Both the position numbers and the translations under genes were made by a program. A stretch of 38,918 bases of DNA from an uncultured bacterium (GTDB lineage: Bacteria > Hydrothermota > Tepidihabitantia > Tepidihabitantales > Tepidihabitantaceae): the NCBI GenBank assembly GCA_964402475.1, contig CAYOCZ010000001.1:1-38918 (forward strand). Reading direction: 5' to 3'. The notes under the pieces are model-generated. The model was not told the DNA's origin. It saw only the letters and a program-made list of their open reading frames with translations, and did not search any database. Positions 7,634 through 28,573 of the stretch are shown piece by piece; the stretch's first letter is position 1, and every line of letters begins with the position of its first letter.

Positions 7634-8833
7634 TTGGAGAAGAATAGAGGAATGATTGACATGTTCTCCCCCGACTTCGAAATCCGCGACCTCATCATTG
7701 AATATGGCGGCGAAGAAGCGCTCAAGTGCTATCAGTGCGGAATGTGCATGTCGCTCTGCCCTTGGTACCAGGTCGACAACGTCACCTTCACGGTCTATCG
7801 TCTGCCTCAGGCGGTCAGGCTCGGCGCGGTTCTCAATACCGAAGACAAAGAGAAGGTGGCCGCCGAAGTCACCGAACTCTACCGCTGCGTCGGCTGTGAG
7901 GCCTGTCTCTACCAGTGTCCTCGCGGAGTGGATATCCCGGCGGTCCTCCGTGCGGTCCGTCGTATCCTGGTCGAGAACCGGTCGATACCGTCGCCTTTGC
8001 AGAGCACCATCGCCCGCACTCGGGCCACCGGCAACCCGCTCGGCGGCGCGCCTGGAGCGCGCACCGACTGGGCCAAAGGCCTTTCGGTGCCCGTCTTCGC
8101 CCCCGGGACCGAGTACGCGTGGTTCACCTGCTGCACCGCCGACTACGACTCACGCTGCCAGGCGGTAGGCCGGGCGACTGTCAGTATCTTGGCGCGAGCT
8201 CAGGTCTCCTACGGCGTGCTTGGCGCGAAGCAGGTGTGCTGCGGCGAGGCGCTGCGCAAAGCCGGGGCCGAGCAGGTCTTCCGGCAGTTGGCGGAAGACA
8301 ACACCGCGCTCATCACTCGCCTGGAGGTGAAGAAGCTGCTTTTCACCTCTCCCCACTGCCTCAACGGCTTCCGCCGCAACTATGGCGAAATCGCAGCCGG
8401 CCGCGAGCTGGTACACGTGACCCAGCTCTTCGCCCGGCTTATCGACGAAGGCCAGCTCACACCGATGAAGCACCTGGACAAGCGTGTCACCTATCACGAC
8501 CCCTGCACCCTCGGACGCCAGAGCGGAATCTACGAGGAACCACGGCGGGTCCTGCAGAGCATACCCGGGCTCGAGCTGGTCGAAATCGAGGACTTCAACC
8601 GGGACCAGAGCGTATGCTGCGGTGGTGGCGGTGGCGGACTCTGGCTCGACTGGCCCAAGGGCGAACGGCTCTCAGACATCCGGGTCAAGCAGGCGGCCCA
8701 GACCGGTGCCAAGGTTCTCGCGGTCGCGTGCCCCTACTGCCTGCAGATGTTCGAGGACTCGGTCAAAACCATGAACCTCGACCTGGAAGTCCGCGACGTC
8801 GCCGAGCTCCTCGCCGATTCGCTCGGAGAATAG
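7634..8833 (+). CDS. hdrD: HdrD-like (fused HdrC/HdrB-type) soluble Fe-S protein with two CCG domains
   Basis: 399-aa ORF from TTG 7634. ATG 7652 or ATG 7661 are more likely starts; AGAGGA at 7646-7651 is 9 nt before 7661. There are two ferredoxin motifs (CYQCGMCMSLCP, CVGCEACLYQCP). There are two CCG-type Cys-rich domains (FTCCTADYDSRC...VCCGEALRK; HDPCTLGR...VCCGGGGGG...CPYCLQM). No TM segment is obvious. Confidence 0.85.
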   Translation: MEKNRGMIDMFSPDFEIRDLIIEYGGEEALKCYQCGMCMSLCPWYQVDNVTFTVYRLPQAVRLGAVLNTEDKEKVAAEVTELYRCVGCEACLYQCPRGVDIPAVLRAVRRILVENRSIPSPLQSTIARTRATGNPLGGAPGARTDWAKGLSVPVFAPGTEYAWFTCCTADYDSRCQAVGRATVSILARAQVSYGVLGAKQVCCGEALRKAGAEQVFRQLAEDNTALITRLEVKKLLFTSPHCLNGFRRNYGEIAAGRELVHVTQLFARLIDEGQLTPMKHLDKRVTYHDPCTLGRQSGIYEEPRRVLQSIPGLELVEIEDFNRDQSVCCGGGGGGLWLDWPKGERLSDIRVKQAAQTGAKVLAVACPYCLQMFEDSVKTMNLDLEVRDVAELLADSLGE

Positions 8834-9024: not shown

Positions 9025-12000
9025 CTATGACGGGATCGCCTTGAGCGCGGCGTTTATCATCGCCTCGGTCTGCCCGGACTTGAACCCGAGATGGTTGATT
9101 GCGCCCGACGGGCAGATCGCGGCGCAGTTGCCGCAGCCTTTACACAAGGCCTCGTTGATGTGGGATACGGTCCTGTCCGCTCTCTCGACCAGTTCCGGAG
9201 CGTTGTACGGGCATGTGGCCACGCAAAGCCCGCAACCCGCACACACGTTCTCGTCCACCACCGAGGTTGTGGCGCTCGCTTCGTACTTGTCCCTGGAGAG
9301 GATGGTACCTGCCCTTGCTGCCGCGGCCTTTGCCTGGACTATGGCTTCCGGAATGCTCTTGGGCGAATGCGCCAGCCCGGCAAGAAACACGCCTTCGGTC
9401 GCGAAGTCAACCGGCCTCAATTTAACGTGCGCTTCAAGGAAGAAACTGTTTTCGTTCAGCGGGACTTTGAGCATCTGGGAAATGGCCGCGGCATCTTTGT
9501 GCGGGACGATGGCCGGAGCAAGCACGACTAGGTCCGGGCTAACGGTCAGGTCGGTCTCAAGCACCAGATCCCGCGCTTTCACTTTCAGCTTGTCCCCGTC
9601 CTTCTCCACCACCGGCTTCAGTTCCTCGTCATACCTGAGGAATATTATGCCCTTGTCACGCGCACGCTGGTAGTACTCCTCAAGGAATCCATAGGTCCGC
9701 ATATCCCGGTACAGCACGAAGATGTTCACCTTGGGATTGAGTTCCCTGAGCTCAAGAGCATTCTTCACCGCTCCCTGGCAGCACACTCGTGAGCAGTACG
9801 GGTGCTCAGCATCCCTTGACCCGACGCACTGAATCATCACGACGTTCTTGAGCCTGGCCAGCTTGTGGGCCTGTGGGTTCTGCATCCGCTTCTCCAGCTC
9901 GGTCTGGGTGATTACTCTCTCGTCCTCGCCGTACAGGTACTCCATGGGCCTGGATTCCTCGGCGCCGGTCGTAACGATGACAACCCCATGCTCAATCTCG
10001 ATTTGTGCCTTTTGGCTCCCGGCTGTTGGTTCCTGGCCTTTGACCTCAATCGTTGTCTTGTAGTTCCCGATGTAGCCTTTGACATCTTCAATAGCGGCTG
10101 ACTTGTACACCTTGATTCTCGGGTGATTCTCAATCTCCTGGACCAGAGCCTTCAGGTACTGCTGAACATCCTCGCCCTGAATCGTATGGTACAGGTTTCT
10201 CAGGTTCCCGCCCAGTTCACTTTCGCGCTCGACCAGTATGGCGTCGAACCCCTGGTCGGCTAACGACAAGGCGGCCGTCATTCCGGCCAGACCACCGCCG
10301 ATGACCAGTCCTTTCTGAATGACCGGCAGCATCACCGCATACAAGGACTCCAGCAACCCCGCCTTTGCCACCGCCATCTGAACCAGGGTCTTTGCCTTTG
10401 CCGTGGCCTTTTCCGGCACGTGCCCGTGAATCCAGGAACACTGGTCCCGGATGTTCGCCATTTCAAACAGGCACGGGTTCAGGCCGGCTTCGCGCAGGGT
10501 CTCCTGGAACAGCGGCTCGTGGGTTCTGGGCGAGCAGGACGCAACCACGACGCGGTTGAGCCGCTGCTCTTGGATAGTCCTGCTTATTTTCTGCTGGGTA
10601 TCTTGAGAACAGGTAAACAGGTTGTGCTCGCCATAGACGACACCGGGCAGTTTCTTGGCGAATTCAACAACCCCGGGAACGTCCACGACGCTCCCGATAT
10701 TGATGCCGCAGTGACACACGAACACACCGATTCTCGGCGCTTCGCCCCTGACATCCCTTTCCTCGGGGTAGGTTTTGGGTACAATCGCGGTTCCCCGGGC
10801 ATCGGCTACTACGCCTTCGGCCGCGGCCGCGGCGCCCGATGCCTCCATCACGGTCTCCGGTATGTCCTTCGGGCCGCAGGCCGAACCGCATACGAATACC
10901 CCGGGTCGGTTCGTCTCGACCGGTGAGAAAACCGAAGTCTTGAAGAACCGGTACTTGTTCAGCTTTGTGTTCAGCTTATCGGCAAGGACCGCATTGGCCT
11001 TCCTCGGTTCGAGCCCGACCGAAAGCACCACCATGTCGAACTCTTCGCTCAACTGCCGCGGATTGCTCTCCGTGGTGTAATACACAAGCAGGTTCCCGGT
11101 CTCGGGAATCTCCAGGACCTTGCCGACCCGGGACCGAATGAACCGCACCCCATGCTGATCCTTTGCCCGGTTGTAGAACGCGTCGAAATCCTTGCCGTGG
11201 GCCCGGATGTCCATGAAGAATATCGTCGGCTCGACGCCTTTGACGTGCTCCTTGGCGATAATCGCTTCCTTGATCGCGTACATGCAGCAGACCGACGAAC
11301 AGTACTTCCGGTCTTCCATGTCGTCCCGGCTCCCGACGCACTGAATCCAGGCGATTCGCTTCGGTACCTTGCCGTCGTACGGCCGCTGGACGTGGCCGGC
11401 GAAAGGCCCGGAAGCGGCCAGGATGCGCTCGAACTCGATGCTGGTCACGACGTTCCTGCACCTGCCGTACCCGAACTCGTACTTGAGCGAAGGATCGAAC
11501 TTATCCGCGCCGTCCGCGACAATGACCGCGCCGACGTCGAAAGTGAGCTGCTGCTCCTTCTGGTCGAAGTCGATTGCATCCGCTTCGCAGAATTCCTTGC
11601 AAACCTGGCACTCACCGGTCTGCAGGTGGATGCAGTGCTCGGCGTCAATCGTAGCGTAGTTCGGAACCGCCTGCGGGTAGGAGATGTATATCGCCGACCT
11701 CTCCACCAGGCCTTCGTCGAACTCGGACAGAATCGGGACCGGCTTGTTGTGCGTAATCTCCTCGAACTTGATGCACTTGGCCGGACACACGGAAAAGCAC
11801 GCTCCACAGGTCTGGCATACGTCTGACTGGACGTCGAATGCCGGCTGCACCAGCCGCTTATCGCCTCTGCCGGTAAACCCGATTGCTCCTTTCCCCATTC
11901 GGTCGCGGCACATGCGAACGCAGAGCCCGCAGAGCAGACAATCCTCATTCTTCGGCTTGATCCTGGGCTTCCCGACCCCCATCTCCACTGCAAGGCGTTT

Positions 12001-12327
12001 GACCTCTTCGGAATCCGGGCACCGCGCCAGCAGCAGCTCCACCATGATTTTGCGGGTCTGCTTCACACGCGGAGTGTCGGTCTCGACGACAAGCCCGTCC
12101 TGGGCCGGATAGGTGCAGGATGCGTGAATGGATGCCGGGCCGTTGTTTTGGCTCACTTCGACCAGGCAGAGCCGACAGGCACCATAAGCCGGCAGCGCCT
12201 TGTGATAGCACAAGGTGGGGATTTTGATGCCGGCCTTGTTTGCTGCCTGGAGTATCAAGCTGCCCTGTTCGACTTCTACCTGCTTGCCGTTGATTGTCAG
12301 ACTTACCATGCTGTTCTTGTTGCTCAT
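9025..12327 (-). CDS. NuoG/HydA-type N-terminal 2Fe-2S + 4Fe-4S module fused to a tandem HdrA-family flavoprotein; first flavin domain lacks its Rossmann start
   Basis: 1100-aa ORF with an ATGA overlap onto the upstream gene at 12324-12327.
- aa 1-~75 carry a 2Fe-2S pattern C-x10-C-x2-C-x16-C (TLCYHKALPAYGACRLCLVEV...HASC).
- Two 4Fe-4S motifs follow: CLLCGLCVRMC and CQTCGACFSVCP.
- From SEFDEGLVERSAIYISYPQAVPNYATID onward it is collinear with the 1038-aa tandem HdrA (EFERILAASGP, IQCVGSRD, YCSSVCCMYAIKEA, RIGVFVCHCGINIGS).
- The second Rossmann is VIGGGLAGMTAALSLADQG, followed by YCSRVCCQGAVK.
- The C-terminal motifs are CAGCGLCVATCPY / CKGCGNCAAICPSG.
- No GxGxxG occurs before the second domain. 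Confidence 0.9.
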   Translation of the reverse strand: MSNKNSMVSLTINGKQVEVEQGSLILQAANKAGIKIPTLCYHKALPAYGACRLCLVEVSQNNGPASIHASCTYPAQDGLVVETDTPRVKQTRKIMVELLLARCPDSEEVKRLAVEMGVGKPRIKPKNEDCLLCGLCVRMCRDRMGKGAIGFTGRGDKRLVQPAFDVQSDVCQTCGACFSVCPAKCIKFEEITHNKPVPILSEFDEGLVERSAIYISYPQAVPNYATIDAEHCIHLQTGECQVCKEFCEADAIDFDQKEQQLTFDVGAVIVADGADKFDPSLKYEFGYGRCRNVVTSIEFERILAASGPFAGHVQRPYDGKVPKRIAWIQCVGSRDDMEDRKYCSSVCCMYAIKEAIIAKEHVKGVEPTIFFMDIRAHGKDFDAFYNRAKDQHGVRFIRSRVGKVLEIPETGNLLVYYTTESNPRQLSEEFDMVVLSVGLEPRKANAVLADKLNTKLNKYRFFKTSVFSPVETNRPGVFVCGSACGPKDIPETVMEASGAAAAAEGVVADARGTAIVPKTYPEERDVRGEAPRIGVFVCHCGINIGSVVDVPGVVEFAKKLPGVVYGEHNLFTCSQDTQQKISRTIQEQRLNRVVVASCSPRTHEPLFQETLREAGLNPCLFEMANIRDQCSWIHGHVPEKATAKAKTLVQMAVAKAGLLESLYAVMLPVIQKGLVIGGGLAGMTAALSLADQGFDAILVERESELGGNLRNLYHTIQGEDVQQYLKALVQEIENHPRIKVYKSAAIEDVKGYIGNYKTTIEVKGQEPTAGSQKAQIEIEHGVVIVTTGAEESRPMEYLYGEDERVITQTELEKRMQNPQAHKLARLKNVVMIQCVGSRDAEHPYCSRVCCQGAVKNALELRELNPKVNIFVLYRDMRTYGFLEEYYQRARDKGIIFLRYDEELKPVVEKDGDKLKVKARDLVLETDLTVSPDLVVLAPAIVPHKDAAAISQMLKVPLNENSFFLEAHVKLRPVDFATEGVFLAGLAHSPKSIPEAIVQAKAAAARAGTILSRDKYEASATTSVVDENVCAGCGLCVATCPYNAPELVERADRTVSHINEALCKGCGNCAAICPSGAINHLGFKSGQTEAMINAALKAIPS

Positions 12328-12803
12328 CTGTCCTGGCCGTGGTTGGGTGCTTTCCGCATCTCGTCGGTATCCAGCCTGAAGCTGGTTTCGGGGTCCCGAT
12401 GCTCGTATACGAAGTGTGTCTCCGGATGACCGGCAATCAGGGTCGTGAGGGTCTGCTCCATATCGCCAAGAGGCTTGCGGTCGATGTGGCTGTGCCGGAA
12501 GGAAGCCTTCACTCTCGTGCCCTTGCCGACTTCGGAACTGATTTCGATATCACCGCCGGCTTCCCGGGCCGCTTGTGCCAGCAACGGAAGACCCAAGCCT
12601 ACTCTCCGCGTAGTCCTGGTGGTATAGAACGGGTCAAGAACCTTGTCGACGGTCTCCTGGTCCATTCCTCTGCCGTTATCCTCTATCTCAACACTGAGCA
12701 GGTCCTTCTCAACATCCTCGTTGACCCTTATCCTGACTTCTGAGGCCTCTGACTCGACCGAATTCTCGACCACATCAAGAATATGCAAGGACAGATCTTC
12801 CAT
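12324..12803 (-). CDS. stand-alone GHKL (HATPase_c) ATP-binding protein, no DHp/phospho-His domain
   Basis: 159-aa ORF. It has an N-box HILDVVENSVES, G1 DNGRGM and G2 GLGLPL. There is no dimerisation/His-phosphotransfer region. Confidence 0.8.
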   Translation of the reverse strand: MEDLSLHILDVVENSVESEASEVRIRVNEDVEKDLLSVEIEDNGRGMDQETVDKVLDPFYTTRTTRRVGLGLPLLAQAAREAGGDIEISSEVGKGTRVKASFRHSHIDRKPLGDMEQTLTTLIAGHPETHFVYEHRDPETSFRLDTDEMRKAPNHGQDR

Positions 12804-13518
12804 CTTCGTTGTGCAGGGCCTTTCCTATTTCAGTCGCCGTTGCTTCCTTAACGAGGAAAACGGTCGAACTCCTGCCGATATCATCCACGGAATGGGCATC
12901 GGAGGACGCAATCACCGGGAAGCCGAACGCCTGCGGAGAGCCGGGGGGCTCCCTGCCCGGAGAGGCCCTTGCCGATACCTCGACACCGTCCAGAGCCAGT
13001 TCATCGGGGATAAAGCCGAGCTGACCAATAATGCCGAACCGCTCGCGGTCAACGTGGGCCGCAATCGCCACCCCGCCCAGTGAGTGGATCGCGTCCACAA
13101 CCTCGTCAACCGACAACGTGGTTGCCCCGATCAGAAGCCGGTCATTGACGCCGGTCACTTCGTCGTGCTCATCAGCCAGCACCTGCTCTCCGAAAGCCCG
13201 CTCGTCGTTGACCCCGGGCAGATTGTCGTAGATGACGCGCTGGAGCCCGAACAGGCCTTCGTCATCATCAAACAGGACCAGGATGTGTACTTCCTCTTCG
13301 GACGTAACCTCAATCCCGCCGACGACAGCGACTCCTTCCCTGTCCGCCGCCTTTCTCACCGCAACTACGTTTTCTGCAGAGTTGTGGTCGGAAATGCCGA
13401 TTGCATCCAACCCCTGCTGACGCGCCCTGCCTGCTATCCGTCCGGGCAGCATCCCCAGGTCCGCGCAGGGAGAAAGACAGGTGTGGATATGCAGGTCCAT
13501 CCTCAGCTTCTTGAGCAT
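12775..13518 (-). CDS. PHP-domain metal-dependent phosphoesterase
   Basis: Metal-ligand motifs are DLHIHT, ISDHNS, EVHILV, IAAHVDR and ASSDAHS. The track ORF extends to 13581, but that would overlap the upstream DRTGG gene by 53 nt. ATG 13518 (MLKKLRMDLHIH) lies 10 nt after that gene's stop and is preferred. Confidence 0.8.
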   Translation of the reverse strand: MLKKLRMDLHIHTCLSPCADLGMLPGRIAGRARQQGLDAIGISDHNSAENVVAVRKAADREGVAVVGGIEVTSEEEVHILVLFDDDEGLFGLQRVIYDNLPGVNDERAFGEQVLADEHDEVTGVNDRLLIGATTLSVDEVVDAIHSLGGVAIAAHVDRERFGIIGQLGFIPDELALDGVEVSARASPGREPPGSPQAFGFPVIASSDAHSVDDIGRSSTVFLVKEATATEIGKALHNEDGRSVLAYS

Positions 13519-13528
13519 CCCGCCTGCG

Positions 13529-13876
13529 TCACTTCGTGTTCCCGCGGATGCCGATTTCGCAGAGTCTTCCCGCAATCTCAAAGGTCTGCAGGCCGGTCAG
13601 CATGACCGGGATGTCCTCCTGCTCCGCTTTTGCCAGGACCTCCTGCTCCGCTTTCCTTCCGTTCACGATGATGATTCCGGAAAGCTCCTTCAGGGAAGCC
13701 ACGGCAATGATGTTCTGATGGACCTGCAGCGTGACCCAGACATTGCCCTCCCGGGAATTGGCCATCACGTCGCTGAGCAGGTCGCTCGCATAACCGCCGC
13801 TTACTTCTCTGTCGAGGCCGCACCGCGGGGTGGCCGACTCCAGATGGAGTCTTTCCACTATGTCCTTGAGTTTCAT
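13529..13876 (-). CDS. DRTGG-domain protein (short stand-alone form)
   Basis: 115-aa ORF. GGYASDLLSDVMANSREGNVWVTLQVHQNIIAVASL...IPVMLT matches the short DRTGG-family proteins commonly annotated in NuoEF/HydABC-type operons. It has an ATGA overlap with the upstream gene at 13873-13876. Confidence 0.7.
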   Translation of the reverse strand: MKLKDIVERLHLESATPRCGLDREVSGGYASDLLSDVMANSREGNVWVTLQVHQNIIAVASLKELSGIIIVNGRKAEQEVLAKAEQEDIPVMLTGLQTFEIAGRLCEIGIRGNTK

Positions 13877-14832
13877 GATGCCTCGTTCTGCCGCCGAACG
13901 TCCTTGTCAGCCTCGTTTCCGTTAAGGTAGATTACGACCTCGAGATTCGTTCCCTTGCCGATTTGCGAGGCCAGACTCATTTCGTCCGCGCAGTTCCTGA
14001 TATTGCACAAGCCCATTCCGGCCCCGAATCCCATCTCCCGTATCCAGTCAGGGGCAGTAGAAAAACTGGGCTGCATCGCCTGCTCGGTGTCGGGGATTCC
14101 GGGTCCGTTGTCCGATGCGCCGATCGTAATCCGGTCCGAGCATACCGAGACCGTGAGTCTGCCTCCATCGGTGAACACTATGATGTTGATTTCGGCCTCA
14201 AACGCGACAATCGCTATGCGGCGGACTATTTCGGGTCGGATACCGAGCCGATGCAGCGTTTTCTTGAGCCTGCTTGCCGATTGCCCGGCACGGTCGAAAT
14301 CCTTACCGGCTATTTCGTACTTGAGGACCAGGTTCGTTTTGTCCGCGACGATGTCCTCGAAGATGTGACTGGCCCGATAGTGGTGAATCTCCTCCTCGTG
14401 GTACTCGACCTCCAGCTTTCTCAGCAGGCACTTGATGATGTTGCCCTTGGTAATAATCCCGACCAGCTTCTGTCCGTTCCGTTCGATCACCGGGAAGCGG
14501 CCAAACCCGTACTGCTCGAATTTCCTGACGGCATGAACCAGCGGTTCGTCGGCATACAGCGTTTCCGCATCCCTCGTCATCCTGCGCTCGATGATAACGT
14601 CCATTTCTCCCTGGGCCAGACACCTGATGTAGTCCTCGATGCTGATAAGCCCGACGACTCTGCCTTCATCTACTACCGGAACCCCGGAAATGTGCTTCTC
14701 ACGCATCACATCTCTCAGGTTATGAATCGCCTGCTTCGGACTCACCGTGACGACGTCGGCGATCATCGCGTCCCTGACCCGGAGCTCATAAGTCAGCTCC
14801 TGAATCTTAGTGAAGTTCCTATCTTTGGTCAT
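13873..14832 (-). CDS. CBS-pair + GHKL ATPase protein (anti-sigma/serine-kinase-like)
   Basis: 319-aa ORF. It has two CBS motifs (VRDAMIADVVTVSP...HISGVPVVDEGRVVGLISIEDY; ...FGRFPVIERNGQKLVGIITKGNI). The C-terminal GHKL fold shows DNGPGIP and GFGAGMGL. Confidence 0.8.
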   Translation of the reverse strand: MTKDRNFTKIQELTYELRVRDAMIADVVTVSPKQAIHNLRDVMREKHISGVPVVDEGRVVGLISIEDYIRCLAQGEMDVIIERRMTRDAETLYADEPLVHAVRKFEQYGFGRFPVIERNGQKLVGIITKGNIIKCLLRKLEVEYHEEEIHHYRASHIFEDIVADKTNLVLKYEIAGKDFDRAGQSASRLKKTLHRLGIRPEIVRRIAIVAFEAEINIIVFTDGGRLTVSVCSDRITIGASDNGPGIPDTEQAMQPSFSTAPDWIREMGFGAGMGLCNIRNCADEMSLASQIGKGTNLEVVIYLNGNEADKDVRRQNEAS

Positions 14833-15196
14833 TCCTCTTGCTGATGTCCAGATAGCCCAGACCCGTGAGCCCGTTCTTGAACAGCCTGCCGCAACTCACG
14901 AACATCGGCAGGCGGGTAGTCATCAGGACTATGCCCTTCTGCTCGGCCAGCTTGAGCGTCTTTTCGTCCGGCTCCTTGCCGCGGATGAAGCAAATCGCGT
15001 GGATGTCGGCCACGTTGGCCGTGTAGATGACCTGACGGTTCGCCAGTCCTGTCAGGAGGATTGCGTCGGGTTTGGCGAAGGCCAGGACGTCGCTCATCAG
15101 GTCGGAAGCGCAGCCGATTTTCACTTCGGTCTTGAGACTGTCCTGACCGACCAGGACTTCCGCCTCGATGGTCTTGCTGATTTCTTCGAGCGTCAT
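14819..15196 (-). CDS. DRTGG-domain protein (second copy)
   Basis: 125-aa ORF, paralogous to 13529..13876 (CASDLMSDVLAFAKPDAILLTGLANRQVIYTANV...GIVLMTT). It begins 4 nt after the NuoF-like stop. Confidence 0.7.
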   Translation of the reverse strand: MTLEEISKTIEAEVLVGQDSLKTEVKIGCASDLMSDVLAFAKPDAILLTGLANRQVIYTANVADIHAICFIRGKEPDEKTLKLAEQKGIVLMTTRLPMFVSCGRLFKNGLTGLGYLDISKRNDQR

Positions 15197-15200
15197 CCTG

Positions 15201-17060
15201 CTATTTCTTCCATTTCGCCTTTTGCTCTCCGGCCTCTTTCTTCATTGGCTTTAATGGTGGCTTTCCTGTCGTGACCAGTATCGCATCGAACTTGCAGACA
15301 TCATAACAGACCCCGCACTTGATGCATTTGTCCTGGTTTATCGCGTGCGGCGTTTTCTTCGTCCCGGTGACAGCATGGGAAGGGCAGTTCTTTGCGCACA
15401 GCGTGCAACCGGTGCATTTGTCCTTATCCACTTCATATCTAATCAGCGCCCTACACACCTTGGCCGGGCACTTCTTGTCCCTGATATGGGCGACGTACTC
15501 GTCTCTGAAATGGCGCAGGGCGCTCAGCACGGGATTGGGCGCGGTCTTGCCCAACCCGCACAGGGATGCCTCCTTGGTGGCCTCACCCAGCTCCTCCAAG
15601 AGTTCGATGTCACCTTCCTTCCCATTTCCCTCGCAGATGTTCGTCAGGATTTCATGCATCGCGGCGAGGCCTTCGCGGCAGGAAGTGCACCTTCCGCAGG
15701 ATTCGTCTTTCGTGAATCCGATGAAGTACTTGGCGATATCAACCATGCAACTGTCCTCGTCCATCACGATCATCCCACCCGACCCCATGATCGCGCCCGC
15801 CTCCTGCAATCGCTCGTAGTCCACCGGCAGGTCGAGCATGCTCTTCGGGATAACACCGCCGGACGGACCGCCGGTTTGAACGGCTTTGAACTCCCTTCCG
15901 TTCGGAATCCCGCCCCCGATGTCATAGACGATCCGACGCAGGGTTATCCCCATCGGTACTTCCACCAGCCCGGCGTTGTTGATATTCCCGGCCAAGGAGA
16001 ACACCTTGGTGCCTTTGCTCTTCTCTGTCCCGATTGCGGCAAACCACTCTGCCCCGAAGTTGATAATCCTCGGCAAGTTCGTCAGGGTTTCTACATTGTT
16101 GATGACCGTGGGTTTCCCGAACACCCCTCGCTGGACCGGGAAGGGGGGCTTCTGGGTAGGTTCTGCCGGCCGGCCTTCAATCGAGTGAATCAGTGAAGTC
16201 TCCTCCCCGCAGACGAACGCACCGGCCCCACGGAATATCTCGACGTCGAAGTCAAAGCCCGAACCGAATATGTCCTTTCCGAGCAATCCGTACTCCATGG
16301 CCTGACCGGTCGCACTGATCAGCCTCTTGATCGCCAGCGGGTATTCAATCCTGATATACACGTAGCCTTTGCTCGCTCCGATTGCGTAGGCGGCAATCAG
16401 CATCCCCTCAATCAGTGAATGGGGATCAGCCTCAATTATCGACCTGTCCATGAAAGCTCCCGGGTCACCCTCGTCAGCATTGCAGATAAGGTACTTGGGC
16501 GTATTCGGGTTGCTCCGGCAGAACTCCCATTTCCTGCCGGTCGGAAAACCGGCACCACCACGTCCCCTGAGCCCCGAGTCCTTTATCTCCCGGACGACTT
16601 CCTCAGGACTCATATCCTTCAGCACCTTTGCCAGGGCTTTGTACCCGTCCCTGGCGATGTACTCATCTATCTGGTCCGGGTCGATTATCCCCCTGTTCCA
16701 GAGCGCAATCAGTCGCTGGTCACGGTAGAAAGGAACGTCGTGCAGCTTCTCAATCGGGTACAGGGTCTCAGGATGGACGTACATCAGGGACTTCACCGGC
16801 CGGCCCTTGAGCAGGTGCTCCTCAACCAGATGCGGGATGTCTTCTTCTTTCAGGAACTGATAGACCACGTCGTCCGGCTGGACAATCAGCGTCGGTCCCT
16901 TGGTGCAAAGCCAACTGCTCCCGGTAAGGACAACCTGGACTTCATCCTCCAGGTGGTGCTTCCTGATTTCCTCCTCGAGCCGCTTCTTGATTGACAGCGC
17001 CCCGACCGAAACACACATGGTGCAAGTGCAGAGCATTACGTTGGTTCGGTATACCTTCAT
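15201..17060 (-). CDS. NuoF/HydB-like NAD(P)H-FMN subunit with N-terminal thioredoxin-like 2Fe-2S domain and C-terminal 2x[4Fe-4S]
   Basis: Motifs are GLRGRGGAGFPTGRKWEF (FMN/NADH site), ESCGRCTSCREG (N3-type cluster), and CTGCTLCAKNCP / CIKCGVCYDVC. The track ORF starts at ATG 17132. The first 24 aa (MSLCRRTARSLRLLG...) do not look domain-like, so ATG 17060 (MKVYRTNVMLCTC...) is preferred. Confidence 0.9.
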   Translation of the reverse strand: MKVYRTNVMLCTCTMCVSVGALSIKKRLEEEIRKHHLEDEVQVVLTGSSWLCTKGPTLIVQPDDVVYQFLKEEDIPHLVEEHLLKGRPVKSLMYVHPETLYPIEKLHDVPFYRDQRLIALWNRGIIDPDQIDEYIARDGYKALAKVLKDMSPEEVVREIKDSGLRGRGGAGFPTGRKWEFCRSNPNTPKYLICNADEGDPGAFMDRSIIEADPHSLIEGMLIAAYAIGASKGYVYIRIEYPLAIKRLISATGQAMEYGLLGKDIFGSGFDFDVEIFRGAGAFVCGEETSLIHSIEGRPAEPTQKPPFPVQRGVFGKPTVINNVETLTNLPRIINFGAEWFAAIGTEKSKGTKVFSLAGNINNAGLVEVPMGITLRRIVYDIGGGIPNGREFKAVQTGGPSGGVIPKSMLDLPVDYERLQEAGAIMGSGGMIVMDEDSCMVDIAKYFIGFTKDESCGRCTSCREGLAAMHEILTNICEGNGKEGDIELLEELGEATKEASLCGLGKTAPNPVLSALRHFRDEYVAHIRDKKCPAKVCRALIRYEVDKDKCTGCTLCAKNCPSHAVTGTKKTPHAINQDKCIKCGVCYDVCKFDAILVTTGKPPLKPMKKEAGEQKAKWKK

Positions 17061-17199
17061 TCCAATTCCGATTGTCGAATGGCGACTGCCGAGTAACCGA
17101 AGGGAACGTGCCGTCCGACGGCACAACGACATGATGCCTCAGCGGTCTCACATGCTGCGTTTTGCCTTCTGCAATCCGACCTCTGCCTTCTGTTTTTCC

Positions 17200-17586
17200 T
17201 CACGGTACTCTTTCACTCCCGAAAGCCAGCGCGTATTCCTTGACGATCTCCCCTGAAAGGACGTGCCTGACGAATATTTCCTTCGCCTTGTCCGGAGTCA
17301 CGTCCACGTATTTCACCGGCGGCTGGCCCTGGACTTCGACCGTTATCATCGGTTCCCGGCTGCACAGGCCGGCGCAGCTCGAAGGAATCAGAATGACGTC
17401 CTTGACGTCCCGTTCTTCTATCTCAGTCATCAACGCGCTCATCACGGCCCGCGCTCCGGCTGCTATCCCGCAGGTGCCCATATGAACAATGACTTTTGCC
17501 CGGCTGGTCCCTTCACGGAGAGAAATCGTCCTCTTCACCTTCTCGGTTATTCTCGCCAGGTCTTCAGGCCTCAACTTCGGCATCAC
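17200..17586 (-). CDS. thioredoxin-like [2Fe-2S] ferredoxin (HydD-like small subunit)
   Basis: 128-aa [17 protein letters not shown] ... [11 protein letters not shown] is the pattern of thioredoxin-like 2Fe-2S ferredoxins found with NuoEF-type modules. Confidence 0.8.
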
Positions 17587-18517
17587 CCGCCTCCTTGTAG
17601 TGCTTGAGCAACTTCGGGATATGGGACAGCCGGAAATGGCCGTGCATGTCCTCGTTCACCACCACAACCGGAGCCTGGCCGCAGCACCCGAAACAGGATA
17701 TGGTCTCAAGCCCGAACATCAGGTTCTTGGTCGTGTTTCCCACCCTGATGCCGAGAGCTCTCTCAAACGCCTCAAGAATCCGGTTCCCGCCCTTGATGTA
17801 GCAGGCCGTCCCCATGCAGACATTGATGGTGTATTTCCCTCTCGGTTTCAGGCTGAACGCATTGTAGAAAGTGGCTACCTGGTAAATCAGGCTCAGAGGC
17901 ATGTCAAGCTCCTCGGAGATGTAACGCAGCACGTATTCCGGGAGATAGGAATAGCTGATGTTGATGTCGTGCAGAACCGGCAGCAGGGCGCCTTCCCTGT
18001 TCTTGTGCTCCTCGATAATCCGCCGCATTTTCGCCAAATCGTCGGGCTTGAGCTTCACCTCGACCTTCTCCTGGTCAAGGTAGACCGCCTTTGTTACCGG
18101 GCAGTTCTCCACGCATAACCCGCAGCCGGTGCACTTGTCCTCGTTGACATAGCGGGGCTTCTTCTTCACTGTCACCACGAAATTGCCCGGGGTCCCGGTC
18201 AACTGCTCAAGTTCGGCGTTCGTGATGAGCTCGATGTTCGGATGCCTTCCGCAATCAACCAGCTTCGGCGACACGATGCACATCGCGCAATCGTTTGTCG
18301 GGAACGTCTTGTCCAACTGCGCCATGGTCCCGCCGATGGCCGGGCCCGACTCAACCAGGTAGACCTTGAACCCGGAATTGGCCAAATCCAGCGAAGACTG
18401 AATTCCGGCTATCCCGGCACCGATGACAAGCACGGCGCCAACGGGCCGACTTCCGCTTTGGGCAACCGCCGATTCATGCCGATTCACGCCGACGGAAGGA
18501 CTGAATTGCTCGTTCAT
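17564..18517 (-). CDS. fusion of the HdrA N-terminal Rossmann/FAD segment (with first ferredoxin-insert motif) to a NuoE/HydC-type 2Fe-2S domain
   Basis: 317-aa ORF. aa 29-141 ([21 protein letters not shown]...[17 protein letters not shown]...[20 protein letters not shown]) align without gaps to aa 10-122 of the 1038-aa HdrA. The C-terminal half is NuoE-like ([39 protein letters not shown]). Confidence 0.85.
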
Positions 18518-18590
18518 CGTTCAGCGTTCATCTTATTCCAGCTATCTGCGTTCACCTGCGGTTCCGCTTTCGGAGCTCTAGTTTCTCCTC

Positions 18591-19700
18591 TCATTGCATG
18601 CCCGTTCGTCTCTCCGCGCGCTCCCGTTTCCTGGCGGCGACCGTTTCAACCATGGAAAGCACGTTCTTCTTGTCGGTATCCGACAAGGCCGCCAACTGAA
18701 GCCAACCATGGTCCGCTGCCTCGGCGAAGGCCCGCTTCGCCATCGTGGTCCTGATCAGGACGGTGGTATACCCGTCGGCAGAACCGAGGCCGCCTACTGA
18801 GATGTCCGCGAAGTCGTTGGCGAAGTTCCGGCACACAAGGCAGGCCGGCCTCGCGATATCCTCTATCTCGCCGAAAGGAACGCGGATGGTTACGCCGGAC
18901 TTCATCTCCAGCCTGAAATCCTCCTTGACGTTAATCTTCAGGATATCCTCCGGCCTTATGCGGTACTTCTTCACGAATCCCTTGTCCATGAGATCCTCGA
19001 ACGCGAAACACTGCATGCAGAATAGCCCAACAGTGAAGTAAATCGCATCTGCCGGCAGGATGTTCAGGACCTGCATTTTACGGACCGCTGTAATCTGGCA
19101 CGGAGTGCCGACAACCGCCAGTTTCGTGGTTCGCGTCGGACCGAACATCCTCACCACTGGAAGAATCGACACGTAGGTGGAGTACTTTTCGCCGATTCCC
19201 TCGAGATGAGATGATTCGGAGAACTGCGACCCCGCCGCCTGAATCAGTTCTTCACGTGTAGTCGCAATCATCGGCTCGCGGTTGAACAACCCCGTCTTCT
19301 TCGCGGCTATCGCACCGTCGATGGTCTTGCTCTCAAGCATGTAAGCAAGCAACGCGGTGACCACGCCGCCGTCGGTTGCGACCTCTGCGATCTTCGCGTC
19401 CAATGCCCGCGCGGAAATGACATCCCGCAGGTTGCCAACCGGGGCCGACCATCCGAATTTGGCCTTGACGTCTTCGTTGAGCTCCTGGGTCTGGGGACAG
19501 ATGAGATAGCATATCCCGCACCTGAAGCATTTGTCCGGGTCTACATATTGGGGTAGGTTGTCGGTGCAGTGGCACATCTCAATTGCCCCCATCCGGTGGG
19601 CAGTACAGAAGGAAACACACGCCCCGCACTTATTGCACAGACCCTTTCCTATGACGTCCTTGAGAAGGTCGTCAAAGCTCAACTTCGTGCTCTGCTTCAT
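18591..19700 (-). CDS. FrhB/FdhB-family (coenzyme F420 hydrogenase/dehydrogenase beta-like) flavo-Fe-S protein with N-terminal 2x[4Fe-4S]
   Basis: It has CNKCGACVSFC and CFRCGICYLICP, then FrhB-family signatures (VVGTPCQITAVRK; CLVCRNFANDFADISVGGLG). The track ORF reaches 19787 but overlaps the HdrC-like gene. ATG 19700 (MKQSTKL) lies 28 nt after that gene's stop. Confidence 0.8.
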   Translation of the reverse strand: MKQSTKLSFDDLLKDVIGKGLCNKCGACVSFCTAHRMGAIEMCHCTDNLPQYVDPDKCFRCGICYLICPQTQELNEDVKAKFGWSAPVGNLRDVISARALDAKIAEVATDGGVVTALLAYMLESKTIDGAIAAKKTGLFNREPMIATTREELIQAAGSQFSESSHLEGIGEKYSTYVSILPVVRMFGPTRTTKLAVVGTPCQITAVRKMQVLNILPADAIYFTVGLFCMQCFAFEDLMDKGFVKKYRIRPEDILKINVKEDFRLEMKSGVTIRVPFGEIEDIARPACLVCRNFANDFADISVGGLGSADGYTTVLIRTTMAKRAFAEAADHGWLQLAALSDTDKKNVLSMVETVAARKRERAERRTGMQ

Positions 19701-19728
19701 ACTTCTGTTCGCACCGGCTGCCGGTAGT

Positions 19729-20196
19729 TCATTTCGCACTGAACCTGCCCTGAACCATCGACTCGATTCTCTTCTTCTTCTCGGCACCGGGTTTGATCAG
19801 GTATTCCACCAGGTTGCACCTCAAGTCCTGGGCAAACCGGTCAAGTTCCTCCATCTGCTCAAGGCGCTCCCTGGGGGCGAAGCCCTCCTCGACCGCCATC
19901 TCACGCAGCACACCCATCACGTCGGCGAACTTGACGTTCTGCGGGCAATGTGCGTAACAGATGTAACATCTGGCGCACATCCAGATGATATCCGAGGACA
20001 GGACGTCCTTCCGCATCCCCAGAATGGCCATCCGGATGATCTTCCTCGGGTCATAGGTCTCGTTGACTTCCGCGACCGGGCAGCTCGCGGTGCAGGTGCC
20101 ACACGAAAAACAACGCTTGAAGTTCTCGGCCCCGGGTCGCGCGGCGATGTCGTACTTGAACTTCGTATCAAGGTCCTTCACGTCAATTTCATCCAT
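19729..20196 (-). CDS. hdrC: HdrC-like 2x[4Fe-4S] protein (no adjacent HdrB)
   Basis: CFSCGTCTASCPV ... DPRKIIRMAILG ... IWMCARCYICYAHCPQNV is the HdrC pattern. The start is chosen at ATG 20196 (MDEIDVK), preceded by GAGAGGAGG and lying 11 nt after the upstream stop. The track ORF to 20415 overlaps the upstream gene. Confidence 0.8.
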   Translation of the reverse strand: MDEIDVKDLDTKFKYDIAARPGAENFKRCFSCGTCTASCPVAEVNETYDPRKIIRMAILGMRKDVLSSDIIWMCARCYICYAHCPQNVKFADVMGVLREMAVEEGFAPRERLEQMEELDRFAQDLRCNLVEYLIKPGAEKKKRIESMVQGRFSAK

Positions 20197-20207
20197 ACTG
20201 CCTCCTC

Positions 20208-21038
20208 TCAGAACTGCTCCGGCAGTCTCTGCAACTCTGCATACGAGAACACCGGGCCGTCGGTACACACGTACTTGGACCCGATATTGCATCTGCCACA
20301 CTTCCCTATCCCGCACTTCATTCTTCTTTCGAGCGAGGTGTAGATTCTCTCGGGCGGGAATCCGAGCCTGAGCAGGACCGGCAGAGTGTATTTGATCATC
20401 ACCGGCGGTCCGCACACGACGGCCCAGGTATTCCTGGGACTGGGCGCCACTTCCTCGGTCACGGCCGGGACGAAACCCACTTTCTTATCCCAGCCCGCAA
20501 CGTCCTTGTCGATGGTAAGGTGCAGGTGCAAATCGTCGCGCTTCTCCCATTCGGCCAGCTCGTCGCAATAGAGCAGCAAGCCGGGCCTGCGCGCCCCGTA
20601 TATAACCGTGATGTCGGCGAAATCCCCCCGGTGCGCGAACATGTAGACTCCGAGCGACCGGAGTGTCGTAAATGCAAATCCGCCGCTGACAATCAATACG
20701 TTCTGGCCGTTGAACTTCTCCACCGGGTAGTGATTCCCGAACGGACCCCGCAGGCCGATGGTTTCGCCCTGTGCCAGGTAATGAAGCGCGGTCGTAACGA
20801 CCCCGACCCGGTTGACGGTGAATCGCAGGAACCCCTCCTCGGTTGGCGATGATGCAATTCCGAACGGGGCTTCTCCTCTGCCCAGGATGGACAACTGGCA
20901 GAACTGGCCGGGCAGATAGTCGAACGTCTGCTCTTTGTTGCGGAAACTGAGGTCGAACGTCCTCAGGGTTCTGTCGTCCGACTCCGTCCGTATCTTGTCC
21001 ACGGTCATCGAGATGGGCACGTAACAATTACCCGGCAT
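20208..21038 (-). CDS. FlxA/AsrB/HydG-like FAD-NAD(P)-binding subunit with C-terminal 2Fe-2S
   Basis: 276-aa ORF with a ferredoxin-reductase-type fold pattern (PGQFCQLS..., RFTVNRVG, NVLIVSGGFAFTTLRS). The C-terminal cluster motif is CGIGKCGRCNIG...YVCTDGPVF. Confidence 0.8.
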   Translation of the reverse strand: MPGNCYVPISMTVDKIRTESDDRTLRTFDLSFRNKEQTFDYLPGQFCQLSILGRGEAPFGIASSPTEEGFLRFTVNRVGVVTTALHYLAQGETIGLRGPFGNHYPVEKFNGQNVLIVSGGFAFTTLRSLGVYMFAHRGDFADITVIYGARRPGLLLYCDELAEWEKRDDLHLHLTIDKDVAGWDKKVGFVPAVTEEVAPSPRNTWAVVCGPPVMIKYTLPVLLRLGFPPERIYTSLERRMKCGIGKCGRCNIGSKYVCTDGPVFSYAELQRLPEQF

Positions 21039-22047
21039 TAATGAACCTCACAAGTACTTCACGGATATCGAGATTAACCGGACAGCTACGGATGCACCTG
21101 CCGCATCCCACGCACGCCATCTCGCCGTATACGTCAACGAAGTAGTTGAATTTGTGCATCACCCGTTGTCGAAGTCGTTCCTTCCCGGTCGGTCGCGGGT
21201 TGTGTCCGGACGCCTCTTTCGTGAACAAAGGCGCCATGCAGGAATCCCAGATTCTGATTCGCCGGCACTGGTTCGTACCCGACGCCTTTTCGTCTTGAAT
21301 GTCGAAACAGTGACAGGTCGGACACAGGTACGCGCAGGCCGCACAGGAAAGACACTTTCCGGTAAGTTCGTCCCACAAGGGGCTGTCCCAGGCTCTATCC
21401 AAGGCTGATTTCAGGGAAGAGACGTCAACCTTGCCTGCCATCGATGACTCGGCCCGCTCCTTGATGTCGGCAGCCTTACGCAGGTCGGCTGCGGAGGCTT
21501 CCTCGCAAGGGATCCCTTTCAGGAAGTCCATTCCCTTTTCGCTGCGGGGCTCCAATAGAATCGCATCACCGATATCGGTGAGCGCTATATCCGAGCCTTC
21601 TGTGCTGAACGGGCCAGAGCCCAACCAGTTGCAGAAACAGCCGGCCCGTGGTGTGCTGCAGCCCATGGTCACTATGAGTGCATTCCGATATCGCCGCGTC
21701 CAGTATGGGTCATTGTGTTCGCCGGTGCCGAATACCTTGTCCAACATCAACAGGCCCCTTGCATCGCACGGCCTGATGCCGATTACCGCAATCGGCCTGT
21801 CCGGCTCCTGGGTTGGCACCACCTCCCCCTGATTGCCAGTGAGCAATGTCTCGGTCTGGGGAAAGAAAATACCCTTTGCCGACTCATCCGGGTTGGCGAT
21901 GTCCAGCCGTAGCGCTCCGGCCGACTCGACTTCGGCGAAGCGCATCAGGCCACCGCTATCAACCGGGCCGAACAGACGGTACCGAGAAAACAACGCAGCG
22001 ACGAATTCGTCAAGCCGCTTCTTGTCTAGCCGAAGTACCTTACTCAC
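21028..22047 (-). CDS. AsrA/HydB/FlxB-like 4Fe-4S dicluster protein
   Basis: 339-aa ORF with IGIRPCDARGL, CLSCAACAYLCPTCHCFD and CVGCGRCIRSCPVNLDI. It has a GTGA start/stop overlap at 22044-22047. Confidence 0.75.
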   Translation of the reverse strand: MSKVLRLDKKRLDEFVAALFSRYRLFGPVDSGGLMRFAEVESAGALRLDIANPDESAKGIFFPQTETLLTGNQGEVVPTQEPDRPIAVIGIRPCDARGLLMLDKVFGTGEHNDPYWTRRYRNALIVTMGCSTPRAGCFCNWLGSGPFSTEGSDIALTDIGDAILLEPRSEKGMDFLKGIPCEEASAADLRKAADIKERAESSMAGKVDVSSLKSALDRAWDSPLWDELTGKCLSCAACAYLCPTCHCFDIQDEKASGTNQCRRIRIWDSCMAPLFTKEASGHNPRPTGKERLRQRVMHKFNYFVDVYGEMACVGCGRCIRSCPVNLDIREVLVRFINAG

Positions 22048-28563: not shown

Positions 28564-28573
28564 GTTCTTTTCC

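Follow-up and report, generated by a model that had tools for sequence, protein, structure and literature searches.

In the SpoIIAB/SpoIIAA/SpoIIE and RsbW/RsbV/RsbU modules, a small GHKL ATPase that resembles a serine kinase acts with STAS-domain partners, a PP2C phosphoesterase and a sigma factor. Here we describe a five-gene cassette in a 38,918-nucleotide stretch of DNA (the window) from an uncultured bacterium of the Tepidihabitantaceae (Hydrothermota; GenBank assembly GCA_964402475.1, contig CAYOCZ010000001.1, positions 1 to 38,918 of the forward strand). The cassette encodes, in order, a DRTGG protein (DRTGG1), an ATPase with a CBS pair and a GHKL domain (CBS-GHKL), a second DRTGG protein (DRTGG2), a PHP-family metal phosphoesterase (PHP) and a small stand-alone GHKL ATPase (small GHKL). 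The likeness to the SpoIIAB and Rsb modules lies in a GHKL protein of the SpoIIAB fold (template modelling (TM) score of about 0.8), adjacent small single-domain partners, an opposing metal-dependent phosphoesterase and a candidate acceptor serine at the N-terminus of a helix. Unlike these modules, the cassette has DRTGG-fold partners instead of STAS proteins, PHP instead of PP2C and no sigma factor. In addition, its kinase-like protein bears an N-terminal CBS pair, a second GHKL protein of the histidine kinase (HK) type is present, and the genes are placed inside enzyme operons. On this comparison, the cassette would be best filed as a variant of kinase/phosphatase partner-switch regulation.

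Parts of the cassette have been noticed before. In HydABC operons, a HisK-like ATPase and HydD lie between or beside hydC and hydB and were assumed to serve "maturation and/or regulation" (PMC8880783, PMC9304861, PMC3608648, PMC8163306), and HK-like ATPases near bifurcating or sensory hydrogenases have been mentioned in passing (PMC3608648, PMC8163306, PMC5037454, PMC8880783, PMC9304861). By description and operon position, the "HisK" and "HydD" of HydABC and NiFe-HydABCSL (Bfu) operons are apparently the same gene types as the small GHKL and a HydD-like ferredoxin of our locus. A first-pass annotation of the window, made from the sequence alone, had taken it as established that HATPase/PHP/DRTGG gene sets occur in HydABC operons. 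This is accurate for the HK-like ATPase and HydD, but PHP and DRTGG proteins are unmentioned in the HydABC papers (PMC8880783, PMC9304861, PMC3608648, PMC8163306). The same papers do not treat CBS-GHKL, the DRTGG pair and PHP as a unit, and contain neither a linkage to non-hydrogenase Bfu enzymes or complex I nor the PHP::GHKL and GHKL::HydD fusions described below. In the searchable literature, DRTGG is named in 18 papers, none of them in connection with NuoEF, Bfu or complex I. We likewise found no paper that connects PHP proteins with these enzymes, and no description of direct control of Bfu-type NuoEF enzymes. The annotation had also called the function unassigned, and we found no functional study of the cassette in the searchable literature.

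Single elements of the cassette are known from other proteins. The CBS-DRTGG-CBS insert of CBS-pyrophosphatases (PDB 3l2b/3l31) likewise combines a CBS pair with a DRTGG fold and is regulated by AMP, ADP, ATP and diadenosine tetraphosphate (Ap4A). A CBS-pyrophosphatase is one fused allosteric enzyme, whereas in the cassette the DRTGG proteins stand free and a kinase-like ATPase carries the CBS pair. HPr kinase/phosphorylase, a serine kinase/phosphorylase that senses metabolic state, has a DRTGG-like fold in its N-terminal domain. Its catalytic domain is a P-loop kinase instead of GHKL, and it is devoid of CBS and PHP domains. Finally, the cassette PHP has the full metal-ligand set in common with PHP phosphoesterases, shows an affinity to the TrpH/RNase AM branch, and is fused to GHKL in Planctomycetota.

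The cassette is real, conserved across about 20 phyla and uncharacterised. Homologues of CBS-GHKL are abundant (more than 5,491 at E<=1e-5) and share about 60% identity across phyla; the best 120 (57-100% identity) are drawn from many phyla. To examine the gene context, one genome per species was considered and the best 80 of at least 600 matching stretches were taken as loci, all anchored on the CBS-GHKL gene. The window proteins were compared with all open reading frames (ORFs) of these loci by BLASTP, and co-occurrence was counted in those 48 loci whose flanks both extended over 6 kb or more. The order DRTGG1 – CBS-GHKL – DRTGG2 – PHP – small GHKL recurred in most loci. Of the 48 fully flanked loci, 47 had DRTGG1, 45 DRTGG2, 44 PHP and 39 the small GHKL. 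NuoF, NuoE and a thioredoxin-like [2Fe-2S] ferredoxin of about 125 aa (HydD-like) were each found in 42 of the 48, on the same strand within 8 kb. Two further contigs (L081 and L082) for which independent gene calls with precomputed Pfam matches were available showed the identical gene order. Judged from the best 80 loci together with homologue names, cassette-bearing loci occur in about 20 phylum-level lineages. These include Chloroflexota, Cloacimonadota, Planctomycetota, Hydrogenedentota, TA06, Acidobacteriota, Melioribacter, Deltaproteobacteria/Thermodesulfobacteriota, Spirochaetota, Gemmatimonadota, Bacteroidota, Delongbacteria, Bipolaricaulota, Fidelibacterota, Nitrospirota and Aerophobetes. 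KSB1, WOR-3, Stahlbacteria, Actinobacteria, Armatimonadetes and Clostridia are represented by protein names in the homologue searches only. Since the gene order recurs in dozens of loci and about 20 phylum-level lineages, the cassette is not a product of chance. An ORF of locus L021 that seemed to overlap DRTGG2 and CBS was rejected as an ORF-calling artefact with an upstream start in another frame.

The first-pass annotation had proposed that the module travels with NuoE/NuoF whatever the catalytic partner. This is borne out by 42 of the 48 fully flanked loci and by the range of partners, which includes a whole complex I operon. The third, catalytic subunit beside NuoEF was HdrA plus an Mvh [NiFe]-hydrogenase, a NuoG/Fdh-like protein, a GltD fusion or an [FeFe]-HydA. 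In the arrangement of the window (arrangement A), the order is NuoE – ferredoxin – NuoF – cassette – long HdrA (1084-1121 aa); MvhD, both [NiFe]-hydrogenase subunits (small and large) and a HycI protease usually come next. In a planctomycetotal locus (L017), HdrA is short (about 590-600 aa) and PHP is fused to the small GHKL. Anaerolineae and others have the cassette ahead of NuoE – small GHKL – ferredoxin – NuoF. There, a NuoG/Fdh-like gene comes next, or else a fusion is seen, either of NuoF with a GltD-like domain or of an Fdh-like protein with NuoE. Finally, locus L047 reads NuoF – [FeFe]-HydA – HydF – HydG – HydE – DRTGG1 – CBS-GHKL – DRTGG2. The H-cluster motif was tried for classifying the third subunits, and only L047 matched; by NCBIfam and Pfam, the other matches of the 1100-aa protein are HdrA, NuoG/Fdh-like or GltD fusions and not HydA. 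As the third subunit varies while NuoEF recurs, there is good support for the view that the module follows NuoEF and not the catalytic partner.

A respiratory complex I operon houses the cassette, between nuoD and nuoE, in Nitrospirota and in one locus of the Thermodesulfobacteriota. Read gene by gene, loci L071 (7173-20027) and L063 (7274-20208) have the order nuoB–nuoC–nuoD–[five genes]–nuoE–fdx–nuoF–nuoG–nuoH–nuoI–nuoJ–nuoK. The same layout was noted for L064-L067, L076, L078 and L057. The NuoF of the nitrospirotal complex I is of the Bfu type: it begins with a [2Fe-2S] domain and ends with a 2x[4Fe-4S] domain. Over 591 residues, it shares 57.5% identity with the window NuoF. This gene content suggests that the nitrospirotal complex I has a ferredoxin-reactive or bifurcating-type N-module.

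The window NuoF (BfuB) consists of an N-terminal thioredoxin-like domain, an FMN/NADH domain and a C-terminal 2x[4Fe-4S] domain (Pfam: Complex1_51K, NADH_4Fe-4S, two Fer4, and a weak 2Fe-2S_thioredx match at residues 29-105). Together with the NuoE domain of the neighbouring 317-aa protein, this extended NuoF would, by its domain content, make up a Bfu (BfuBC/HydBC) core. The Bfu-type NuoF is likely the core of the target enzyme. The annotation had held that the module targets the NuoEF part. The linkage to NuoEF agrees with this claim, but it is too narrow for DRTGG1 and CBS-GHKL, because this pair also heads group-3b-like operons that have no NuoEF. The gene pattern suggests two sub-modules: DRTGG1 and CBS-GHKL, which always occur together, and DRTGG2, PHP and the small GHKL (with HydD), which accompany NuoEF.

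Natural fusions connect the members with each other and with the enzyme. PHP is fused to GHKL in several lineages (P0374, P0381 and L017:11299-12489, the last from Planctomycetota), and the small GHKL is fused to the HydD-like ferredoxin in P0472 and P0414. The ferredoxin parts of these two proteins are 40-42% identical to the 128-aa ferredoxin of the window. In P0414 the aligned cysteines are replaced, so this copy may not bind a cluster. The HydD-like ferredoxin also adjoins the small GHKL in a further arrangement (B) and is placed between nuoE and nuoF in the nitrospirotal complex I operons. It is therefore a probable sixth member or docking partner of the module, and through the GHKL::HydD fusion the module is physically connected to the enzyme. 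We considered whether the HydD-like ferredoxin mimics the N-terminal domain of NuoF; this was unsupported, as BLASTP detected no similarity between them. The purified NiFe-HydABCSL enzyme is without HydD and HisK (PMC8880783; PMC9304861), and for this reason HisK and HydD are not stable catalytic subunits.

In the window, the cassette is placed between the NuoF-like gene and the 2Fe-2S::HdrA gene, and the five ORFs, their lengths, coordinates, strand, overlaps and domains, as given in the first-pass annotation, agree with the ORF list and with Pfam. Neighbouring genes are chained by four overlaps. DRTGG1 and CBS-GHKL share 14 nt at 14819-14832 (ATGACCAAAGATAG), CBS-GHKL and DRTGG2 an ATGA at 13873-13876, PHP and the small GHKL 29 nt at 12775-12803, and the small GHKL and the HdrA fusion gene an ATGA at 12324-12327. 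These overlaps are translational coupling, which includes coupling to enzyme subunits. The longest ORF of PHP begins with TTG at 13581 and encodes 268 aa; it was read as 247 aa from ATG because homologues of 245-250 aa align from there. A Pfam scan of the operon (9025-22047) and of the other window genes scanned found no receiver, STAS, sigma-factor or helix-turn-helix/DNA-binding gene, in accordance with the annotation. Across 79 loci, STAS, sigma-factor, PP2C, receiver and DNA-binding genes were not recurrent in or beside the cassette; some loci have unrelated two-component or sigma-54 regulator genes several kb away. In a marine-sediment metatranscriptome (run X14), one contig of 240 nt agrees with the CBS-GHKL gene at 13912-14151 except for one mismatch. 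It is weak evidence for in situ transcription of this gene or of a very close relative, and a single contig of this length is too little to show co-transcription. The window sequence also recurs in freshwater, lake, sediment and cold-seep metagenomes.

Table 1. Genes of the cassette and of the surrounding operon, with positions in the window.
Feature	Position	Strand	Product	Basis or remark
DRTGG1	14819-15196	minus	125 aa	Pfam PF07085
CBS-pair + GHKL ATPase (CBS-GHKL)	13873-14832	minus	319 aa	Pfam CBS x2 + HATPase_c
DRTGG2	13529-13876	minus	115 aa	Pfam PF07085
PHP-family metal phosphoesterase	12775-13518 (from ATG)	minus	247 aa	Pfam PHP + PHP_C
Small stand-alone GHKL ATPase	12324-12803	minus	159 aa	HATPase_c
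2Fe-2S::HdrA fusion (BfuA position)	9025-12327	minus	1100 aa	Pfam, NCBIfam
Bfu-type NuoF (BfuB)	15201-17132	minus		Pfam, NCBIfam
HydD/HndB-like thioredoxin-like [2Fe-2S] ferredoxin	17200-17586	minus	128 aa	weak 2Fe-2S_thioredx match
HdrA N-terminal FAD-binding fragment fused to NuoE (BfuC)	17564-18517	minus	317 aa	Pfam, NCBIfam
Fer4_22 protein + FAD/NAD-binding protein	20208-22047	minus	339 aa + 276 aa	upstream, same operon; Pfam

The CBS-GHKL protein matched two CBS domains (6.9e-27) and HATPase_c (3.7e-8) in Pfam. Its AlphaFold2 (AF2) model had a mean predicted local distance difference test (pLDDT) score of 79, with the CBS pair (residues 9-139) and the GHKL domain (168-302) confidently modelled. 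In Foldseek searches, the N-terminal half resembled CBS proteins (TM 0.8-0.9), including MJ0922, MJ0100 and AcuB, which binds nucleotides and Ap4A. The C-terminal half resembled SpoIIAB (TM about 0.8; PDB 1til, 1l0o and 1th8), which was also matched by sequence, and residues 226-299 gave a partial hit to TIGR01925 (spIIAB; 8e-12) that was under the curated cut-off. The N box (E..N), G1 (DxGxG), G2 (GxGxG) and G3 boxes place both ATPases of the cassette in the GHKL family. In an alignment of 104 CBS-GHKL sequences, the ATP-site residues E212, E214, N216, D241, G243, G245, G268-G274 and N277 were invariant in all, and G294 and T295 were invariant or nearly so. The adenosyl-binding motif G-x-x-S/T-x-x-D occurs in both CBS domains (G61/S64/D67 and G125/T128/D131) and its residues are kept in 88-104 of the 104 sequences; the window protein carries N131 where the family motif has D131. 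The annotation's suggestion of adenine-nucleotide sensing is upheld with regard to these canonical motifs, and ligand binding itself is a prediction from them. CBS-GHKL is a candidate adenine-nucleotide sensor combined with a putative Ser/Thr kinase or ATP-dependent clamp.

The linker of CBS-GHKL is acidic and amphipathic, with E148, F158, D160 and D164 highly conserved, and contains the conserved motif YRASH(I/F)F. We rejected YRASH as an obligate H-box: H156 is histidine in only 85 of the 104 sequences and is therefore unlikely to be an obligate phospho-acceptor. The conserved motif looks more like an interface than a phospho-acceptor. Neither ATPase matched a HisKA-type family in Pfam or NCBIfam. 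Together with the variable H156 and a linker modelled as a single helix, this supports the annotation's reading that neither has a dimerization and histidine phosphotransfer (DHp) or phospho-His region. Neither a DHp with an invariant histidine nor a cognate receiver partner, as in two-component sensor histidine kinases, was found.

The small GHKL (HATPase_c, 1.1e-19) is closest to the catalytic and ATP-binding (CA) domains of true histidine kinases (AtoS, 1e-17; KinB and WalK in the PDB). Its N, G1, F, G2 and G3 boxes are conserved, and the sequence begins directly at the N box, without a DHp. A conserved H-x-D-R-x-P-x-G motif follows right after the G3 box (residues about 102-113) in a C-terminal extension. 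Most homologues are about 180-190 aa long, compared with 159 aa in the window, so the C-terminal tail of the window copy is shorter. At E<=1e-30, the family comprises 262 clusters (50% identity).

The two DRTGG proteins scored 28.0 (DRTGG1; 2e-6) and 28.1 bits (DRTGG2; 1.8e-6) against PF07085, for which the cut-off is 25.2, and DRTGG2 had an additional weak match to Hpr_kinase_N. They are paralogues (hhalign probability 99.8%). The DRTGG1 fold was modelled with high confidence (AF2, pLDDT 92) and resembled AF1212 (2ioj; TM 0.78-0.81) and 3l2b (TM 0.66) in Foldseek. The name-giving D-R-T-G-G residues are absent; DRTGG1 reads TGLxNxQ and (I/V)RGKxP, and DRTGG2 reads TLQxHxN and GRxP at these positions. 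Both share an invariant D32 and S35 (D-x-x-S; DL[M/L]S), which are not conserved in AF1212. In DRTGG1 the motif is DLMS, with D32, L33 and S35 invariant and M34 nearly so, and the AF2 model places S35 at the N-terminus of helix 34-40, directly after a strand. DRTGG1 also has an invariant C29 and C69 and C102 conserved to about 90%; no cysteine is conserved in DRTGG2. The DRTGG1 cysteines could be ligands of a metal or Fe-S cluster, or a thiol redox sensor. Many DRTGG1 homologues have a fourth cysteine in a C-terminal G-C-S motif.

Across 63 sequences, PHP keeps its metal-ligand motifs (HxH, DHN, E, H, H, DxH). The nearest curated or solved relatives are TrlF, CehA/McbA, pAp-phosphatase, TrpH and RNase RNM/AM types (PDB 3e0f/3o0f; RNase AM, 7ug9). 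CpsB/YwqE are protein phosphatases of the PHP family, and they did not match among the curated and PDB relatives. None of the five proteins has a family of its own in NCBIfam, and a PDB sequence search returned no close solved homologue of any of the five whole proteins.

Given these features, it is likely that the cassette is regulatory, rather than catalytic or involved in assembly. Several features favour a regulation that is not exerted on transcription: both kinase-like ATP sites are intact; a nucleotide sensor, a metal phosphoesterase and two small paralogous partners are encoded together, with no DNA-binding protein among them; and translational coupling and fusions are present. We give an even chance to the proposal that the five genes, probably with the HydD-like ferredoxin, form an ATP/adenylate-dependent switch acting non-transcriptionally on cytoplasmic NAD(P)H-linked Fe-S flavoenzymes, above all the Bfu-type NuoE/NuoF. 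In this switch, the CBS pair of the 319-aa protein would read the adenine-nucleotide status and thereby control the SpoIIAB-like GHKL domain, which would bind and/or phosphorylate DRTGG1; the candidate site is S35 in the invariant D32-x-x-S35 at the N-terminus of the helix. A further kinase-like ATPase and an opposing hydrolase would come from DRTGG2, PHP and the small HK-type GHKL, which would dock on the enzyme via HydD, and PHP would reverse S35 phosphorylation of the DRTGG proteins. The phospho-state of the DRTGG proteins, or the ATPases themselves, would hold or release the NADH/ferredoxin module. In this way, electron flow may be matched to energy charge and redox state, with the DRTGG1 cysteines and/or HydD reporting the latter. 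Phosphorylation of the DRTGG proteins specifically is a tentative element of this scheme. With similar reserve, we put forward a wider version: a general post-translational on/off switch of the Bfu-type NuoE/HydD/NuoF module in bifurcating hydrogenases, HdrA-linked enzymes, Nfn/Fdh-like enzymes and the nitrospirotal complex I. It would be a new kind of partner switching, with DRTGG in the place of STAS and PHP in that of PP2C; energy charge would be sensed by a CBS-gated SpoIIAB-like kinase, and redox state by the cysteine-rich DRTGG1 and/or HydD.

Several observations weigh against this switch. First, the DRTGG fold is unrelated to the STAS or receiver folds in Foldseek, and the nearest solved relatives of PHP are nucleotide or RNA phosphoesterases, not protein phosphatases. 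Second, the linker helix of CBS-GHKL (149-162), which joins the presumed sensor to the ATPase, has low confidence in the AF2 model. Third, the two-gene core of DRTGG1 and CBS-GHKL, with or without DRTGG2, occurs without NuoEF in L003, L009, L011 and apparently L015, and L040 and L059 have no NuoF nearby. A Fer4_22 protein and/or a FAD/NAD protein comes after the core in these four loci. In L003, L009 and L011 both of them directly follow it, the same pair that lies upstream in the window operon. Read gene by gene, L003 (9575-15405) continues with a [NiFe] small subunit, a large subunit and HycI. These genes encode an NAD(P)-linked hydrogenase resembling group 3b, and NuoEF, PHP and a cassette small GHKL are all missing. 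In addition, there is a sampling bias: all loci are the 80 best matches of CBS-GHKL and are anchored on it, so the counts give the share of cassettes with NuoF nearby. Finally, cross-phyla gene order, NuoEF linkage, fusions, intact ATP and metal sites and folds were observed directly, and from them we infer protein phosphorylation, the identity of its acceptor and an effect on enzyme activity.

We also weighed a role in maturation or assembly, in which GHKL, PHP and DRTGG proteins help to load FMN or Fe-S cofactors or to assemble NuoE/HydD/NuoF. In the work on the NiFe-HydABCSL structure, HydD, HydP and HisK come under "maturation and/or regulation", and the purified enzyme was flavin-free as isolated (PMC8880783). 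In L047 the cassette comes directly after hydF-hydG-hydE. Chaperones such as Hsp90 belong to the GHKL ATPases; however, both GHKL domains of the cassette are kinase-like (SpoIIAB, HK CA) and not Hsp90- or MutL-like. To our knowledge, characterised HydABC enzymes and complex I (E. coli, Thermus) assemble without such genes. A CBS sensor domain is better suited to regulation than to assembly, and the same core also stands ahead of NuoEF-less enzymes. We consider the maturation role unlikely.

A nucleotide-signalling role seems to us equally improbable. Here, PHP would cleave 3'-phosphoadenosine 5'-phosphate (pAp), Ap4A or an NAD-derived signal, the CBS and DRTGG domains would bind it, and the GHKL proteins would serve as ATP-dependent clamps without protein phosphorylation. 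The affinities of PHP to 3',5'-bisphosphate nucleotidase, RNase AM and TrpH types fit such a role, and CBS-type adaptors like AcuB bind AMP, ADP, ATP and Ap4A. The pairing of CBS with DRTGG also recalls the nucleotide/Ap4A-regulated insert of CBS-pyrophosphatases (PDB 3l2b/3l31). The fusion of PHP to an HK-type catalytic domain in several lineages rather resembles an opposing kinase and phosphatase, and D32 and S35 are subfamily-specific in the alignment with AF1212 and not general ligand-binding residues of DRTGG proteins.

Less probable still is transcriptional control by anti-sigma or partner-switching action, in which the SpoIIAB-like protein sequesters a sigma factor or regulator encoded elsewhere. 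SpoIIAB is indeed the best GHKL match of CBS-GHKL, and homologues bear the names "anti-sigma regulatory factor (Ser/Thr protein kinase)" or "Anti-sigma F factor". The lack of recurrent sigma-factor, STAS and PP2C genes in the 79 loci speaks against this explanation, as do the position of the cassette inside structural operons, in translational coupling to enzyme subunits, and the GHKL::HydD fusions that link it to the enzyme. An unorthodox His-Asp phosphorelay, with the small GHKL phosphorylating a histidine in trans (e.g. H156) and then D32 of the DRTGG proteins, could draw on the resemblance of the small GHKL to true HK catalytic domains, the conserved YRASH(I/F)F linker and the D32 invariant in both DRTGG proteins, but it is highly improbable given that H156 is K, Y or R in 14 of 104 sequences, that HisKA is unmatched, that the linker is modelled as one low-confidence helix and not a DHp hairpin, and that the DRTGG fold is not a receiver fold.

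The surroundings of the cassette are rich in redox genes. HdrA is split in the window operon. An N-terminal FAD-binding fragment (residues 27-148 of the 17564-18517 product, corresponding to HdrA2 140-262) is fused to NuoE, and residues 165-308 of this product match 2Fe-2S_thioredx/NuoE. The remainder of HdrA, from about HdrA2 residue 250 and in three matched stretches, makes up the rest of the 1100-aa protein, preceded there by a HydA/NuoG-like 2Fe-2S/4Fe-4S domain. About 5 kb separates the two halves, which flank NuoF and the cassette, and the same was seen in L081, L082 and the arrangement A loci, where the place of the 1100-aa fusion is taken by orthologues of 1084-1121 aa. A second redox cluster (23523-31899) is found upstream on the same strand and contains a 1038-aa double HdrA-like protein and a 644-aa HdrA, and further HdrA-like genes lie at 34746-37683. 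Pfam scans of these upstream genes covered the 1038-, 644-, 541- and 439-aa proteins, and the rest was read from sequence features. By these, the second cluster also encodes a probable [NiFe]-hydrogenase (large subunit, 487 aa; small subunit, 330 aa), a probable maturation protease of 155 aa and an MvhD-like protein of 133 aa.

On the other side, an HdrD-like gene (Fer4_8 and two CCG; 7634-8833, plus strand) is convergent with the HdrA fusion gene and ends 192 nt from its end. Tandem paralogues at 1053-3047 and 3504-5450 (minus strand) encode PTS_EIIA_2 fused to a CitMHS-type transporter; a 137-aa ORF without a Pfam match lies between them, and a YacP-like NYN-domain gene is located at 543-1049. 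Long antisense ORFs, such as 21846-22901, 15345-16196 and 13963-14844 (all plus strand), are not genes but products of a G+C content of 56-66%. One of them (351 aa) exceeds the length of the real Fer4_22 gene that it overlaps.

The existence of the cassette had been half-noticed before. What is new is its extent, its two-part structure, the fusions, the partner-independent linkage to NuoEF and the occurrence in complex I operons. Bfu-type NuoEF modules serve electron bifurcation and confurcation in the hydrogen, formate, NADPH and heterodisulfide metabolism of anaerobes, and structural work on them has centred on catalysis. The proposed switch, if true, would account for the "HisK" and "HydD" genes that have been annotated without a function for about 15 years, and would add a new GHKL, DRTGG and PHP architecture to the bacterial protein-switch systems. 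It would have a bearing on the engineering of hydrogen- or ethanol-producing anaerobes. It would also offer a first handle on how electron bifurcation, and a variant of complex I, are regulated at the post-translational level.

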